A stretch of DNA of 63,725 nucleotides, the filler included, from Basidioascus undulatus (Eukaryota), in the NCBI GenBank assembly GCA_000826855.1. It is 8 parts of 8 records of this genome, joined end to end, with 100 filler letters (N's around TTAATTAATTAA, not from the genome) between each part and the next. Parts side by side here need not be neighbours in the genome. Positions count along the whole stretch, not along the records: positions 1 to 23,449 come from JTLS01000266.1; 7 more parts are not named here. The stretch is one strand, 5' to 3'. Under the pieces are notes generated by a model. That model was not told where the DNA came from and ran no database searches. It worked only from the letters and a program-made list of their open reading frames with translations. The translations under genes were made by a program, and so were the position numbers. Below, one piece after another: positions 1 through 60,249 of this stretch. The first letter of the stretch is position 1. Each line of letters starts with the position of its first letter.

Positions 1-2254
1 CCTCCTCTTTGCCTCCTCCGCACCCCGCACATCCGCCCCCGCCCCTGCCGCTGCCCCCACCGCCGCCGCTGCTTCCCCAGCAGCCACACCCTCCGCCGCG
101 GGCGCGAAGCCGTGGCAGGCGATCGATGAGGCGCCTGTGGACGTGTATTGGTCCAAGAAGGACGGGCGGATTGGGCGGACGGGCAAGGACGCGCCGAGCC
201 GGCACAAGGGGAATCTGAACACGCTCGCGATTGAGGTGCGTCTTCGGCGGGGCTTGCAGAGGGGTGGGGTGATGCTGATCGTGGTATTGGCCGGGGTTCA
301 AACAGCCGTACGACACCAACTACCACAAGGAGCACCAGATCAAGCACCTCTCGTTCCACGCGTACCTGCGCAAGCTGCATGACAAGAACCCGCCCACCTC
401 GTCCGTCGCGTCGCTCCCCCCGCTCTCGGAACCCTCCTTCAAGTACATGCAGTGGGTCCCCGCTGCGATAACGCTCGGGGTGCAAGAGTTCCGGATGGTC
501 GACCACGTCGAGTTCTCCTCGCCCGCGATGATCGAGAACCTGCTCAACTTCTGGCGGGCGACGGCGACGCAGCGCTTCGGGTTCCTCCTCGGACGGTACG
601 AGCCGTATGACAAGGTGCCGATGGGGATCAAGGCCGTCGTGGAGGCGATCCACGAGCCCCCGCAGGAGGGCGAGCTGGACGGGCTGACGCTCGGCCTTCC
701 ATGGGAAGACCAAGCGCGCGTGGAGGCCCTTGCCCGCGACGCGGGGCTCGAGGTCGTGGGCATGATCTATACGGATCTGACTCAAGCGCCGGGGGAGAGC
801 GCGCCCCAGTGCAAGAGGCACCAGGACAGCTTCTTCCTCTCCTCGCTCGAGACATGCTTTGCCGCAAAGCTCCAGCTCGCGAACCCTACGCGCACAAGGC
901 ACTCGCCCACAGGCACGTTCCAGTCCCGCTTCGTCACGTGCGTCCTGAGCGGCACGCCCGAGGGCGGCGTCGACGTCGCCGCGTACCAGGTCAGCGCGCA
1001 GGGCGCGGCGCTCGTGGATGCGGACATCGTCGAGCCGAGCGTCGAGCCGGGTACCATGCGCCTGAGGGAGAGCGTGAAGGGGCGCTATGTTCCGGATGTG
1101 TTTTATCGGTATAAGAACAAGTACGGCATCGACGTCAAGCAGTACGCGAAGCCTTGCTTCCCCGTTGAGTACCTCCTCGTCAACGTGCGTTTCCCCTCAC
1201 TCCTTCACTCCCTGTCCTTTCTCCCCTTCTCTCTCCCGCTTATCTTCCACCCGCCTGCTGACTTCTCCCGTTCTCCCCCCACAGCTCACGCACGGCTTCC
1301 CCGTCGAGCCGAACCCGCTCTTCCTCTCCTCGCGCTTCCCGATCGAGAACCGGCCTGGGCTGCACGACCAGTCGGTGGACAAGCTCGTCTCGCTCCTCTC
1401 CCCGCTGGTCAAGGACCTCCCCGGCGTCGCGTACCTCTCGCCGGAAGACGTCGGCGTCTCCTCTTCCTCCGGGAAGGGGAAGGGGCGCACCGAGGATGCC
1501 GGGCGGGTGGAGGAGCTCCGGAGGGTGCTCAGCGATTGGCACTTGGTTGCGTGGTTGGAGGAGAGCGGGCTATTCTCGAAGGTGCGCCGCGCCATTCTCG
1601 CGCTTTTGTGTGCGGAGGGGAAAGAGGTGTTGACAAGCTTTTTGGGCGGGCCGACAGGACGACGTCAAGAAGTTCATGCACGTTGCGACGGCGCACGACG
1701 ACCCGCACGCGCTCGAGGGGGTCGTGTCCACGGACGGTTGGAAGACGCTCATGCACATCGTCAAAGAGCGCTCCGCGCGTACGTTATCCCTTCCTCTTCC
1801 TCCCCTTCCCTTCCCCTCTTAACTCCCCCGCGCCTTCAACTGACCCCCCTTCCCCCAGCGACCGCCCAACCCCACGACTACCCTGGCGCATTCGGCGGCG
1901 GCGATGACGTGGACATCCCGCCCGAGGCATTCGACTCTGCCGCCGCGGGCGGTGGAGCGGGCGGGCTGTCGGACGAGGACGAGGCTGCTATCCAGAGCGT
2001 GAGCGATTTCATGTTAACAGGGCGAAGAGGAGGTGTAGAAGGAACGCTGATGTGTGTTCGCGGGTGGACAGCTGATGGCCTTCGGTGGGTTCCCGTATGA
2101 GAGTGCCAAGGAGGCGTATTTGGCTTGCGATCGGTGGGTCGGGCCTTTCTTTACTGGCTTTTGGTGGTGGTGAGGACAGAGAGCTGATGTGCGTGCTGGG
2201 GGTGGTAGCAATTCGGAGCACGCTGCGAATCTGCTGTTCGAGAACGCATTCTGA
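1..2254 (+). CDS. NPL4: Nuclear protein localization protein 4 (Cdc48-Ufd1-Npl4 adaptor), multi-exon, 5' end outside the window; C-terminal UBA domain
   Basis: Spliced translation contains IKHLSFHAYLRKL, AITL..QEFRMVDHVEF, QRFGFLLGRYEPY..VPMGIKAVVEAIHEPPQ, VGMIYTDL, FFLSSLE, SRFVTCV, YVPDVFY, AKPCFPVEYLLV..THGFP and FPIENR, all Npl4 hallmarks. Stop TGA at 2252-2254. Confidence 0.96.
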
Positions 2255-2787
2255 GCCGGAGGGAGAGAAAGGGATGGGATGGTGGGCCGTTGGGCGTAGT
2301 GGTTGATGATGAGATGAGACGCTGAATGCAGGGCGTCTTTTGAGCTTGAAGCTCAGTTGGTTCGTGTTCGTGATCGAGAGGGGAAATGAGGCACAGCGCT
2401 GTTGGGACGGTTGGATAGGCGATCAAGAAGGGGACGATCAGTCCAAGTGTGGGATGCGAGTAGCGAGAAGGTGCGCCAGCCCGATCGAGGTGAGCGCAAG
2501 ACGGAGATGATCATGTGGGCGGATGAGTGGACGCAGCTCTGATGTGAGTGAGTGAACGTTTGGGAGGAAAGGGTAGCACTTGATGGGTGATGCGGATTCG
2601 AAAAAGGCGCGGTGAGTGCTTGAGCGGGTCCGGCACGCCCAGATGACCTACATCTTCGCAGAAGAGTGAAAGAGAGGGGAGGGTGGGAGAAGTGGTATCA
2701 TGCGATGCTTGAGTGATGATGGTAATGGTACATACGCCAATGCCTCTAAACCGAGAGAAAAGCAAAAGAAGACGTGGATGTTGATGA

Positions 2788-18728: not shown

Positions 18729-19916
18729 TCACGCCTCAGGCAGGTTGCTCATAACAGCCCTCTCGTCCTTGATGCCCTCCGTCAAGCGCGCCCTCTCCGC
18801 CCACAGCACCTTGTACGCGCTCCGAATCGTCGAGTCGCTCACGCCTGCAACGCTCCCAATCTCCACGGCGGTCTTCGGCTTCCCATACAGCGCGCTCGCA
18901 AAGAAGATACAGCTGCCCGCGATGGTGATTGGGCTGCGGCCCGCTAGGACGCCGTGCGTGCGCGCGGCGACTGCGACTGCGACGGCGCCTGTCTGGACCC
19001 ACACGGGAAGGTTGAGGTGGTTGCAGTAGCGGACCATGAGGTCCTCTGCAGTCGTGCCGCTGCTCGCCTCGTCGGGCGCGCGGGGCGTCTCGAACGCTGC
19101 CTCGAGCGCCTTGAAGCACTGCCCGATCGTCTTCTTCGGCACGCGGGTGAGGCCGCAGATCTCCTTGAACGTGCGCGGGACGCGCGCCTGGCGGCACGCG
19201 ATGAAGAGGCAGGCGGCGATGATCGCGTCCTGGGACTTGCCGCGCAGGAGGCGCTCCTCGTCGACGCGCTTGAAGAGCTGCTTCGCGATGTCGACGATCG
19301 AGCGTGGGAGAGAGATCTGGTCCGCCATGCTGCTTATGTCCCGGAATGCGTTCAGAAGATTCCGCTCAGACTTTCCGGACGCGGACTTCGCCGCCGCCCG
19401 CTGCAGCTCGCGCGAGAGGCCGGAGTGCCCGTCCCGAGAGGAGATGATCGTGTCCAGCGTGTCGAAGCCCTCCATGAGCGGGTTCGACGCTGCTCCGACA
19501 CGCGATGGGTCGTCGCCTTCGTCGTTGGCGAATGTCTGCGCACCCGAGCCAGCCGTGAGTCCCACCTACATCGGAGACATCGGAAGAAGGGGAAGAACGC
19601 ACGCGCCACTCGCTCCGCGTGTCCACCACGCGATCCCCGAGGATGAGCCCGCAGTCCCCACAGACCAGATCGCCCGACGAGAACTCCTCCACGACGTTCG
19701 GATGCGGATCGCGGCACTCTGGGCAGATCTGTCCGCCACGACACCCACCATCCGCCCCACCCGCGTCAGCGTCTTCCGCCCGCCCCGGAAGCCCATTGCA
19801 AGCGGCGGTAGGCTGACCAGCTTCACCGACAGGTCCGGCGCGAACGGCGCGGGCGCGGGCGCGGGGCCCGCCTCGGTGAAGCGCTTGGCGAGGGGGAAGG
19901 CTTGGGGAGTCGCCAT
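18729..19916 (-). CDS. SUA7: Transcription initiation factor TFIIB (3 exons)
   Basis: Zn ribbon ICPECRD..VVEEFSSGDLVCGDCGL, B-reader DTRSEWRTFAND..DDPSRVG, and cyclin repeats (IAACLFIACRQ..VPRTFKEI; LAGRSPITIA; VAGVSDSTIRSAYK). Confidence 0.97.
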
Positions 19917-22900
19917 TGTGCGTTGGGCGGGGCGGCGGGAATGCGAGGCAAGGACGAAGACGCTGGCTGGCTGGAAGATGGACGAAGCGAGATGTATGGA
20001 CGGGTACGAGCGAAGGACAGCGAGTGGAAGACGACAGGATTGATACGATCGAAAGCAATGGACGATCGTCAGCGAGCGTTCTCTGCTTCAAAGAGATGTG
20101 CTCGCCACTAAGATCCACAAGCCCGACTCGACTCCCAACACGCCCAGACTCCTCCGACCGGTACAGGAAGATCAGGGATGTACCTGATCGGCTCGATTGG
20201 GGGACGACGGAAACAACGGCTGGGGCGCTACGAAGGATTGAAGGGAGTGGGGCGATAAGGACGAGCGGAAGACGATGATAGTTGGCGTGGAAGCGTACCG
20301 GGGGCGACGACCTGCTCTTTGGGCCGACTTGAGCGGTAATCGGCGAGCTGCACCTGCTTGTCTGCGTTGCCAAACAAGCTCCCTCTACTTCGTCCGTTAC
20401 AGCAGTTTGTTGCAAAAGGTTAGGTCTCTGTTCCTTGCCCCGCGGGATGCAGTCACCTCGTCCGGCTTTCTGGTCATCCAAGTCAGTCAGGCCCAAGATG
20501 CCGTTGTTCAGCTAAAAACCAAGCAGCAACAAGAATAAGGCATGCGACGGGACTTTTTGCTATATACGTAAAGACAACACTTGGGGGCGGGTTGTGAACT
20601 CCATCGCCTGGGCGTCTCGCACTGGAACGAATGCTCGCCACAAGAAAACAGTCAAACTGAGCATCACATGTCTGCTGCAGGTATGTATGCTGTAAGAGTG
20701 ATTAGCCAATCTTCGAAAACAAGATAGACTTTGTCTAAATGTCCAACATGTCGCTCAACGTGCCAGGCATTCCGCTGAACTGAGGCATATCACAACCTCC
20801 AACAAGGAGGCTGCAGGTTCACCTTGAATGGATATTAGCCAAGTTGTCCAGATACACATCTGAAGAAGAAGAGAAAGGGTAGTTGGGTGCAAGCAAGGCT
20901 TTTTTGGGTGTGAGACCAAATCCTCCGATCCGATGAGTTTGGAAGCTTCAGTCTGCGGTGGCGTATTGGTGCAACGGTTCGGTACTCATTTATTCACTCA
21001 CCTCTCGATCCTTCCAGCGCTTATGGCTGTCGCAGGCTTAAAGGTCCGTCTTTCGATCACCTGAGCGCAGGGAGGCACGTCATCGAAGGCAAGCCCATCG
21101 TGGCGGCGTCCCGTCCCCTTCAGCCAGGAACATGTCCTTCCAACACATTTGGATTTGGACCTCCTCCCTGAGGGGTCGAAGCTTCACCGCGGCACCCAGC
21201 CTAGGGGCCAGCCAACGCGACTTCAGTGTCGTCGGCACGAGATCTCGCCCAGAGGCCGCCGGCCACAGAACTTCTGACCTAATTAATCAAACAGAGTTCT
21301 GAGATCCGACATCCGTGCTGATCGCATTGTGCTCGGAAGCGACTTTCTGCGCTGCGAGTTTTACTGGACTCGCCGCACGTTCGCCTGCTTCGTCGCCCCT
21401 CCGCTTGGCCGCCCTCGCCAGAGTTCCATTGCGCAGTCCCGGACGTGTGCTCGCCCCCTTTTCGAGATACATCGCTTGTGGCGTACCTGCATAATACACC
21501 GATGAGAAGGCTTGTCGAGCGTCAAGCGGTTCCGTGGAGCCGAACTGCGGGGCTGTTTGGACTTCTCTACATGCACGGGTTCATGACAGCGTTAAGCACT
21601 GACCGTAGAAGTTCAGGCAGCTCGAAAAGTTCCCCTACAGGGCAGTGCGGTTTAATGATCCAACCACGCGAACAGGCTCCTGGCGTCGCTACAGATACGA
21701 GTTGCGTCCAGCAATTTGCGCGTGAAGATCGTGCAAGATGTCTACCAACGGCTGCACCCCGGCCACCCTTTTGCTCTTACACACGATCAAGTCGCCGCGT
21801 CCTTCGATATCATTGAATCATTCTATGCCGATGTCGGCGGCCTCTGCGAAGTCTGCGGCGCTGCTTGTTGATCGATGTGCCGGGCATGCTTCGGTGCTGC
21901 GTATTGCCGGCAGGCGCATCAGAAGGAGGATTGGCCAAGGCACAAAACTGTTGTCTTTTGCACCCGAGCATTATGCTTACTCTAGCTCGTTTGGTCCTTC
22001 CATCTGCAATGGTGCAAGGCCCACCGGGTGTGAGGGGCCGGCATGGGCGCCGGGCGGGCTGCTATGTGTTGAGGGGGTAGCTAGCGATCGGGGCATGCGG
22101 CAATACTAAAGATTCCATTGCAGTATTTTTAATATGATAGTGACGCTCTAGAGGTTCGACCGCACTAGAAATCATAGGTTCAGAGCGTCTTGAGTAACGT
22201 AGCGGGACCTGAATGGCCCACACACCCGTCTGCTTCCTTGATGTCAAGCTTGATGGTTTACTGCAGTGATTGCGCAAGGCTTCCACCGTACGTTTTTCTG
22301 CTCTGTATGTGAGCGGAGTGGGTCTCCGCCTCTTTCTGTTCCCAAGATCGCCTCGTAGTACCTTGCGCAGTCACCTCGCGTCAACGCGCGTGGCCGCTAT
22401 TGACATTCCTTTGCCCTTATCATCCTACCGATTTCACTTCTGTCTCAGTTGTACTTGAAAGTTGTGAATATCAATTCGCAATCTCCATTCAGATGCGGGA
22501 TTGACGCTTCGCGGCTTCGCCAATAATCTTCCTTCGCTCGCCTGCCTTTCATGAAACTACGTCAACATCCCCCCAGTGCCAGCTAAAGTTAGTCCCAGCT
22601 GTCCTTTCGAAGGTTTATATAACTATGTAAGAAGCAAACCGACATGTCTCCTAGGCCTGTAGGCAAATGCCCGTTCTAGTACCAGCCTGGCCATCTGCCC
22701 CAGCAACTTCCGCTTGCTTCTGTGTCAGTCGGGGCAAGCCTCGACCAAAGGCCTCCAGTCTTCCGAAAACGTCAGACGTACGAAGGAGACAGGAAACCAG
22801 CGTCTGTGCCGTTGTGTCCAGATTGACTTTGTGCACTGCGAGTTGATCATCAGCACTGACTCGCTCGCAAGTTCGCCGCTGCATCACCAGGCCCATTACG

Positions 22901-58590: not shown

Positions 58591-60249
58591 CTACCTCTCC
58601 TCCTCAAGCGTCTTCACCGCCATCCTAGCGCAAGTCTCCTCCTCGTCCGTCCACGCCACCCAGGTCTGGACCTTCGCGCCCTCCTTCCCGATCCGCACCG
58701 CCTTGGTCTTGCCCTCCTCGACCCCCTCGTTCAAGCCCTCGTCCACCTCCACCCCGAGCGGCGCCAGCGCCTTCCCGACGTCGCTGCGCAGCCGCGCCGC
58801 TTTCTCGCCGATCCCGCCCGTGAAGACGATGCCGTCTACCGGGCCCTGCGCGAGGAGCTTGCACAGGTAGGACGAGAAGAAGTGGAGGAGACGGTCGAGG
58901 TAGACCGCGTACGCCAGCTGGTACTTGTTCACGGGCGGGTCGGGGAACGGGTCCGAGGCGGGCGGAAGGTGGGAGACGATCTTGCCGAAGTTGTTGGTCC
59001 CGCACATGCCGACGAGGCCGCCTTGCCTGCATGATTGCCGGGGTGTTAATACGACGAAATTCGCGATGCGCGATGGCGCGGTGCCACGGCTGCCTGTTAA
59101 AAGTTAAAACGTACTTGTTCATGATCATCTCGCCGCGAGCAATCTGAACGATGAGGATACGCAGAATGATGAGAACGTTGAGAACTGCGCGTTGCTTGAA
59201 AGCGATAGCAAACCTACCTTCATCCCCTTGAAGTCGACGATGTCTGCGGAATGCGGCTGCCAGTGGAAGATGAGCGTTGGGTCGACGCTGCCCGTTCGCG
59301 TCCCGCCCGGAATGCCTGTGCCATTCGCCTGGCGTAAGCGCGCAAGTCGAGCTGAAAAAGAACAACTGCTGCTCACCTTCGAGCGGAGTCAGTCCCATGC
59401 TCGTATCGATGCTCTTGCCCTTCCTGACCGCGCACAGACTCCCACCGCTACCTAAGTGCGTAATGACGATACTCGTGTCCTCCTCCTTCTTCCCCAGCGC
59501 TTGCGACACGGAGCGCAGGACGGACGCGTACGAGAGACCGTGCGCGCCGTACTTGCGCAGCGGGATGCGCGGCTTGTGGTCGGGGTTCTGGGGCGGGAGC
59601 GGGTAGGTGGTGATGTGCTTGGGGAGAGAGGCGTGGAAAAGCGTGTCGAAGCAGAGAACGGAGGTCGACTTGGGGAGGTTTCTCAGGACGGACCGGACGG
59701 TCAGGACGGCGTGGTGGTTCTGCAACCCCAGCCTCAGGTTCAGCCGTTGGTCAAGCGGAAAAATACAATAAGAAATAGAACGAGACATACATGCAAGGGA
59801 GCAAAGGCGCTGATGATATCCATCTTCTCCAGGCCTTCCTCCTGGCCCTTGCGGACGATGATGGGCTTGCTCTCCTCGGCGCCGTGTACAACGCGGTGAG
59901 CCACGACCTCGACCGCGTCCCTCTCGAAACCGTTGGAGATCAAGATCTTTTGCAAGATCTGCTCGAAGATATCTTCGTCTGTGTCAATTTGTGCGCTCAT
60001 GTCAGCTAATCTACCCAAGGGGACCGAGCAGCTTCGTAAACACTCACATGCGGGATGGCCTTCGATCGCGTCCTCCGTCTTCTTGCAGCCAGAGGAAGAA
60101 ACAAGAGTGGTTTTGATGACTGCTCCTTCGGTGCCGATGTTGGATGCGCCGCCTTCGCTGAGCGGCGTGAGATCGGGAAGGGAGAAGAGTCTGTATTTGA
60201 TCGAAGACGAGCCGCAGTTCACGGCGAGGAGTGTACGCTGGGGTGCCAT
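58591..60249 (-). CDS. ackA: Acetate kinase, multi-exon
   Basis: LAVNCGSSSIKY, VAHRVVHG, FAPLHNH, FDTLFH, LRKYGAHGLSY, ITHLGSGGSLCAV..GKSIDTSMGLTPLEG..GGTR.GSVDP, IVFTGGIGE and TDEE. Confidence 0.96.

Follow-up and report, generated by a model that had tools for sequence, protein, structure and literature searches.

Introduction

In the human p97 system the two CHCC zinc fingers of the cofactor Npl4 (zinc fingers 1 and 2; ZF1 and ZF2) bind to the D1 ring as well as to the N domains, the motion of the fingers is described as essential for unfolding, and cupric ions from a disulfiram derivative have their effect chiefly via ZF1 and ZF2 (PMC7785736). In the canonical fungal Npl4 proteins of Saccharomyces cerevisiae and Chaetomium thermophilum (structures 6cdd, 6chs, 6jwh, 6oa9 and 8dar) both fingers anchor the Npl4 tower on the Cdc48 D1 ring. 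Here we describe the NPL4 gene found at the start of a 63,725-nt stretch of DNA (the window) made up of 8 joined parts of the Basidioascus undulatus assembly GCA_000826855.1, of which positions 1-23,449 come from JTLS01000266.1. Its product shares family and fold with the canonical fungal proteins, whereas its fingers are either ligand-less or deleted. An initial annotation of this stretch had pointed to the missing finger ligands, and the roles it ascribed to the fingers, namely p97 contact and being the target of disulfiram-copper, agree with the literature cited above.

Npl4 without fingers has been described outside the fungi. A 2025 study reports that plant and other non-opisthokont NPL4 proteins lack the fingers, which are found particularly in Opisthokonta, and proposes the finger-less plant state as ancestral; in finger-less species a short strand and a helix fix the MPN domain to D1 (PMC12902296, accessible text). 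The Arabidopsis protein AtNPL4 (9m3z) is finger-less yet a working CDC48 cofactor, with a zinc-free linker at the D1 site that fingers use elsewhere, and further plant-type features given in the same study are a UBXL-MPN linker strand on the D1 ‘triple-F’ strand and the lack of a Ufd1 heterodimer. Plant NPL4 and the window protein have the absence of zinc-finger domains in common, but they are not close kin: the window protein is nested in Basidiomycota, and a Foldseek comparison of the AlphaFold2 model of its Wallemia hederae orthologue (P0177) with Arabidopsis chain 9m3z_G gave a TMt of 0.54 at 16% identity. Unlike plant NPL4, the window protein represents a secondary loss within Opisthokonta in which the flanks of the zf-NPL4 region were kept. 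Mammalian NPLOC4 and other basidiomycete Npl4 proteins share with the window protein an extra ubiquitin-binding module at the C-terminus, the difference being that theirs is a zinc-binding NZF and that of the window a predicted three-helix UBA. Yeast Npl4 itself is without an NZF (PMC6910952, accessible text), and the Leishmania VCP paper makes no mention of Npl4 fingers in its accessible sections (PMC7403338).

The published finger-less plant NPL4, which the initial annotation had overlooked together with the disappearance of the NZF and its replacement by a UBA, makes the state found in the window less surprising than first thought. For fungi the situation differs, as the literature covered gave no report of finger loss in Wallemia or in any fungus, the supplements of PMC12902296, which possibly list species, lying outside the scope of that search. 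What is new is therefore the secondary loss of fingers inside Fungi and the exchange of NZF for UBA, and not finger-less NPL4 itself. We consider it probable that the window encodes an expressed orthologous Npl4, a ubiquitin-binding cofactor of Cdc48/p97, and that all three of its zinc modules were lost in a common ancestor with Wallemia.

Loss of the ZF1 and ZF2 ligands

Translation and Pfam matches place the 3' portion of the NPL4 gene, 592 codons in seven exons down to a TGA stop, at window positions 2-2254 on the plus strand, while the 5' part, with the region of the N-terminal UBX-like domain, falls outside the window, upstream of base 1. Judged by sequence, the predicted product is a member of the NPL4 family on three counts: the family domain (PF05021, covering MPN and C-terminal domain; exon 2, E 4.8e-88, 295.9 bits), the zf-NPL4 region (PF05020; exon 2, E 2.1e-24, 86.7 bits against a cut-off of 25, with a weak match of E 0.25 in exon 1), and orthology by tree.

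How unusual the finger sites are can be seen when 317 Npl4 proteins, collected from three word-index searches and their clusters, are aligned with that of the window. At least 3 Cys residues were present at both sites in 250 proteins, and the sites were uncovered in 54. Neither site held a single Cys in 8 sequences, namely the window, six gene models of Wallemia ichthyophaga and the W. hederae protein, nor in 2 proteins of a lineage that we call ‘clade X’. The last 4 (P0032, P0125, P0128 and P0276) were read as truncated or mis-spliced models. P0032 (Hermanssonia centrifuga) and P0276 (Umbelopsis vinacea) had been candidates for true losses, but only the middle of ZF2 is gone in these while ZF1 and the last ZF2 residues are kept, a pattern of gene-model errors that likely stem from mis-predicted introns; P0125 and P0128 were rejected as finger losses, being truncated models.

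In the window protein the remnant of ZF1 is encoded at about 164-235 (+) and its end, the E-P-Y-D motif, at the beginning of exon 2. The four ligand positions of the C-x-H...C-x-x-C pattern read Ser (197-199, at the position of the first Cys), His, a deletion and Thr, and the flank L-x-I-E-P-Y-D is retained. ZF2 has lost about 17 residues together with all 4 ligands of C...H...C-x-x-C, and the gap is spanned by a short linker that contains Q-W-V-P (438-461, +). The initial annotation was accurate on all these points: the peptides on which it relied are encoded at about 137-476, across exon 1 (to 235), the intron at 236-305 and exon 2 (from 306), there is no Cys at either site, a short linker stands in for ZF2, and the flanks are conserved and in frame.

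The rest of the protein has hardly changed. Using the 139 near-invariant columns (those covered by the window in which the 250 canonical proteins show conservation of at least 90%), we found that the window keeps 6/15 in ZF1, 6/15 in ZF2 and 0/8 in the NZF, compared to 100/101 in the remaining core, where the sole change is Val to Leu. Outside ZF1 and ZF2, three canonical basidiomycete proteins scored in the same way kept 107-109 of the 109 columns; within each finger they kept 14-15 of the 15. Since core columns were kept while finger columns were lost, the core must be under strong constraint, with the zinc modules alone having been removed. Exon 2 of the window protein remains 60-66% identical to canonical basidiomycete Npl4, which makes this finger-less fungal protein a close natural comparison for finger function.

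Domain annotation alone hides this ligand loss, because zf-NPL4 scores of finger-less proteins are far above the cut-off: 106-108 bits for the Wallemia orthologues P0193 (W. ichthyophaga) and P0177, and 98-108 bits once the clade X protein P0199 is included, versus 216-223 bits for the canonical P0009, P0039 and P0102. The match of the finger-less proteins is to the flanks and not to the ligands.

As the ligands are absent we infer that the window Npl4 is zinc-independent. It could be argued that other residues of the remnant (His, Asp or Glu) still serve as zinc ligands, in which case the protein would not be zinc-free, and the one His kept in the ZF1 remnant fits such a scheme. This seems very improbable to us given that the same His is Glu in both Wallemia orthologues, that the other positions are Ser, a deletion and Thr, that ZF2 is physically gone, and that the tail has no Cys pairs.

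A predicted UBA at the position of the NZF

The third zinc module of basidiomycete Npl4, the C-terminal NZF, is missing as well. The NZF-type pattern C-x-x-C...C-x-x-C (RanBP2-type, PF00641) is present at the C-terminus of 200/250 finger-intact proteins, and the Pfam model Zn_ribbon_RanBP matched 20/68 members of a mixed alignment, whereas the pattern is absent from the C-terminus of the window protein. At this position we find matches to the Pfam UBA domain (PF00627, cut-off 22.4), with 24.6 bits for W. hederae P0177 and 21.2 bits for W. ichthyophaga P0193. By itself exon 6 of the window scores below the cut-off (17.4 bits, E 0.0039), the match being to a 20-residue fragment of the tail. In the AlphaFold2 model of P0177 the domain forms three helices (residues 618-659) with a predicted local distance difference test (pLDDT) score of 92-95. 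In the window and in Wallemia, then, the NZF of basidiomycete Npl4 is replaced by a predicted UBA.

A hidden Markov model (HMM) built narrowly on this tail gave 13 hits at E ≤1.3e-8, all of them proteins of the finger-less lineage, plus 4 weak ones at E >2. The idea that a UBA tail occurs only in finger-less Npl4 was nevertheless refuted by a broader HMM, which returned 7 finger-intact proteins with a UBA-like tail; the type of tail is therefore not simply tied to finger loss.

Gene structure and integrity of the sequence

A lost stretch in the assembly, or exons missed in the gene model, could in principle create a finger-less protein from a canonical gene. We compared window positions 1-2300 with contigs of three public runs: X1, possibly the source run of the window; X2, from a separate study; and X3, from the same sample as X1. 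The DNA contigs of X1 and X2 showed 0 differences from the window over 1-1213, so that two DNA studies agree base for base. In X3, contigs lack five GT..AG introns, with breaks that coincide exactly with the predicted borders, and record 4 of this run has a further, sixth gap (1779-1858) that agrees with intron 4. Across the finger region X3 joins 233 to 304 (a cut at +2 giving GT..AG) and is unbroken over 304-1184, and this continuity rules out a hidden exon that would restore the ligands. Taken together, the identity of X1 and X2 and the spliced X3 contigs mean that neither an assembly deletion nor a missed exon lies at 130-480, the two ways in which the state might have been spurious. Independent Wallemia assemblies moreover encode the same state, and we regard an artefact, ruled out by the contig comparison, as having a negligible chance of being true.

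The exon structure that follows from these data, all on the plus strand, is as follows. Exon 1 (2-235), whose splice is confirmed by an X3 contig, encodes a low-complexity linker that leads into the first half of the zf-NPL4 region, and is followed by the 70-nt GT..AG intron 1 (236-305), skipped by the same contig. Exon 2 (306-1184) carries the end of the ZF1 remnant, a conserved helix, the linker at the ZF2 site and the start of the MPN domain. Intron 2 (1185-1284, GT..AG) separates it from exon 3 (1285-1581), the remainder of the NPL4 family domain (Pfam NPL4, E 4.1e-6), and intron 3 (1582-1657, GT..AG) precedes exon 4 (1658-1778), which encodes the C-terminal domain; contigs support each of these features, joined for exon 4 by alignment. 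Record 4 of X3 stops at 1778 and resumes at 1859, and GT and AG can be read in the sequence at the ends of intron 4 (1779-1858). Exon 5 (1859-1998; contigs and alignment) holds an acidic and Gly-rich linker and the start of the UBA, followed by intron 5 (1999-2071, GT..AG), exon 6 with the first part of the UBA (2072-2133) and intron 6 (2134-2208, GT..AG), all three with contig evidence. Exon 7 (2209-2254) contains the end of the UBA and the TGA stop and by alignment occupies the NZF position of other basidiomycete Npl4 proteins.

The simplest reading of the intron-less X3 contigs is that X3 is of cDNA origin. Among the public runs found for this locus none is recorded as RNA, and the evidence for splicing comes from X3 alone. 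The X3 transcript contig also reaches 312 nt further upstream of window base 1. Separately, the spliced contig of X3 record 4 has a loose end of 255 letters past about 1932 that is mismatched to the window, and which may be explained by a chimera or by a fold-back during assembly.

Orthology and shared state with Wallemia Npl4

All three changes, in ZF1, in ZF2 and from NZF to UBA, are also present in P0193 of W. ichthyophaga and P0177 of W. hederae, and the deletion of ZF2 is common to P0121, P0122 and P0123, P0121 clustering with W. hederae. The finger-less state persists over a divergence of about 65-72% identity. In a tree built with IQ-TREE from 70 rows and 415 columns, from which the finger and tail columns had been dropped (quick search; support by the Shimodaira-Hasegawa-like approximate likelihood ratio test, SH-aLRT), the window and the two Wallemia proteins formed a clade (support 99) inside the basidiomycete clade (100), with an end branch of 0.23 for the window. 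The nesting of this clade within zinc-finger-bearing Basidiomycota supports a lineage-specific orthologue. Of the two origins that the initial annotation had offered, the lineage-specific one thus gains from the tree and from both Wallemia species, and the zinc-sparing paralogue found no support.

According to the paralogue explanation the window gene would be a zinc-free copy in a specialised or reduced role, the main job being left to a canonical, finger-bearing NPL4 at another locus of the genome. Copy number was assessed from protein listings and not from the whole genome of the organism or of Wallemia, which leaves room for such a copy and counts against orthology. In addition, finger-less NPL4-like proteins are seen in animals expected to hold a canonical copy (Styela clava and Schistocerca gregaria), so that pairs of this type may occur. 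We nonetheless judge the paralogue to be unlikely: the window protein sits at the orthologue position, with Wallemia inside Basidiomycota and on a short branch, it keeps 100/101 core columns, and, although the evidence is weak, no canonical Wallemia Npl4 appeared among 458 fetched proteins (the best 120-150 hits per search).

In passing, most strains of W. ichthyophaga are annotated with a 1117-aa protein (P0001) in which an upstream SPX/RING protein is fused with Npl4, while one strain has two genes in its place, P0193 (661 aa) and P0194 (464 aa). P0001 is probably a gene-model fusion.

Finger loss in other eukaryotes

To place these findings in a wider taxonomic frame, a profile search of 1.84 billion representatives returned 1492 hits, of which the best 150 were examined. 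The 141 new representatives among these comprised 82 with both fingers, 35 that were uninformative and 24 odd ones. Within this set of 150, both fingers were lost in Arcella, Pyxidicula, Chroomonas and Styela clava, and ZF2 alone in Flabellula, Rhizamoeba, Oscarella and a protein labelled Schistocerca. Many finger-less or ZF2-less proteins of other lineages carry UBA or UIM-like tails. The Npl4 proteins of Arcella, Pyxidicula, Flabellula, Chroomonas, Styela and clade X thus resemble that of the window in having no Cys at one or both sites and often a UBA or UIM-like tail, but they belong to separate lineages and possess a Cys-free loop at ZF2 where the window has a short deletion.

Could all finger-less Npl4 proteins descend from one old paralogue? 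Finger-less rows are scattered on the tree and their states require at least 5 changes, and the approximately unbiased (AU) test rejected this candidate at p 8.9e-6 when all 20 ZF2-less rows were held together, a group that was defined after inspection of the tree. Close to the window finger loss is rare: 61 metagenome loci, all ≤58% identical over full matches, included no further member of the finger-less clade, and the ZF2 motif C-x-x-C-Q-P was kept in 58/58 of the metagenome loci that covered the site.

Several of these proteins merit a brief description of their own. Clade X is represented by P0199 (612 aa) and P0202 (595 aa), fungus-like sequences from metagenome/Logan data that share about 40% identity with the Npl4 of chytrids and zygomycetes, fall near the base of the fungi on the tree, and have a UBA-like C-terminus and, at each finger site, a loop free of Cys. 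P0358 (Styela clava XP_039256624), annotated as an Npl4 homologue, is without either finger and ends in a UIM-like tail. P0387 (Schistocerca gregaria XP_049848811), also annotated as an Npl4 homologue, lacks ZF2, carries a UBA tail and groups on a long branch with amoebozoan-like sequences; it is possibly a paralogue or contamination.

Predicted structure and a possible mode of action

The AlphaFold2 model of P0177 has a pLDDT of 90, with 78-82 in the ZF1 remnant and 82-87 in the ZF2 linker, and the model of exon 2 of the window reaches 91.9, with 80-83 in the linker blocks. Foldseek matched the P0177 model to fungal Npl4 structures (6cdd, 6jwj, 8dar) with a TMt of 0.85-0.87 at 37-40% identity, and a phmmer search with the orthologue gave E 5e-113 against 6chs. 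The N-terminal UBX-like domain (PF11543) is found in the orthologues P0193 (E 6e-9) and P0177 (E 1e-6).

From these data one may picture how a zinc-free Npl4 could operate. The ZF1 loop would have been kept with loss of its Cys ligands, the ZF2 knuckle excised to leave a four-residue linker, and the ubiquitin-binding C-terminal NZF exchanged for a UBA that presumably binds ubiquitin without zinc. Such a protein would still work with Cdc48 and Ufd1: the UBX-like domain and Ufd1 would tether it to Cdc48, the ordered remnant linker, free of zinc, might let the MPN tower dock on the D1 ring, by analogy with what has been published for plant NPL4, and the extra ubiquitin contact would come from the UBA instead of the NZF. 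Zinc would not be needed, nor would there be a finger target for copper from disulfiram-type compounds.

Besides the matter of copy number raised above, four points weigh against a working orthologue of this kind. The fingers are called crucial in animals and fungi, making full function without them not self-evident (PMC7785736 and PMC12902296, accessible text). The alignments given to AlphaFold2 held canonical homologues, and confidence in the remnant loops may be inflated as a result. The UBX-like domain is seen in the orthologues alone, the corresponding region of the window gene lying off the window edge. Lastly, the kind of run X3 is was guessed as ‘DNA?’, and X3 shares its sample with the possible source run.

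That the fingers are reported to be indispensable to human p97's unfolding activity (PMC7785736, accessible text) also invites the thought that, having lost its docking fingers, the protein drifted away from Cdc48 work, through neofunctionalisation or early decay. We attach only a slight probability to this. The 592 codons form an uninterrupted frame and are correctly spliced, the same state has been kept across the divergence of about 65-72% identity, conservation of the core is almost perfect, and a putative ubiquitin-binding tail was gained, not lost. A retained cofactor role in an orthologue that shed its zinc modules before the split from Wallemia continues to be the reading that we prefer. 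The window and Wallemia proteins accordingly bear on whether fingers are needed in ubiquitin unfolding, on how fingers can be replaced, and on insensitivity to copper or dithiocarbamates.

Why the zinc sites disappeared is a separate question. The cleanness of the removal, with three zinc modules gone, 100/101 core columns kept and an NZF exchanged for a UBA, hints at a pressure against zinc sites in Npl4 specifically. It is conceivable, and we offer this tentatively as something we doubt more than we believe, that selection and not drift removed all zinc sites in the ancestor shared with the xerophilic Wallemia, the swap of NZF for UBA preserving ubiquitin binding, and that the outcome was a zinc-free unfoldase resistant to copper, dithiocarbamates and oxidants with plant-like, finger-free docking on D1. 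If true, this would be a natural opisthokont reversal, and the fingers would be dispensable for the core mechanism.

Other genes of the window

TFIIB, which the initial annotation had noted on the same contig as NPL4, does keep its Zn ribbon (PF08271, E 5e-11; 19369-20511, minus strand), and its intact state argues that zinc ribbons were not generally lost on this contig. None of the 33 scanned open reading frames (ORFs) of the window matched Cdc48 or Ufd1. An ORF at 58628-59983 on the minus strand has an acetate kinase family match (PF00871, E 5.8e-32), and other ORFs of the window match DnaJ (two), kinesin, a PCI domain, an amino-acid permease, a DEAD-box helicase and eIF2B.

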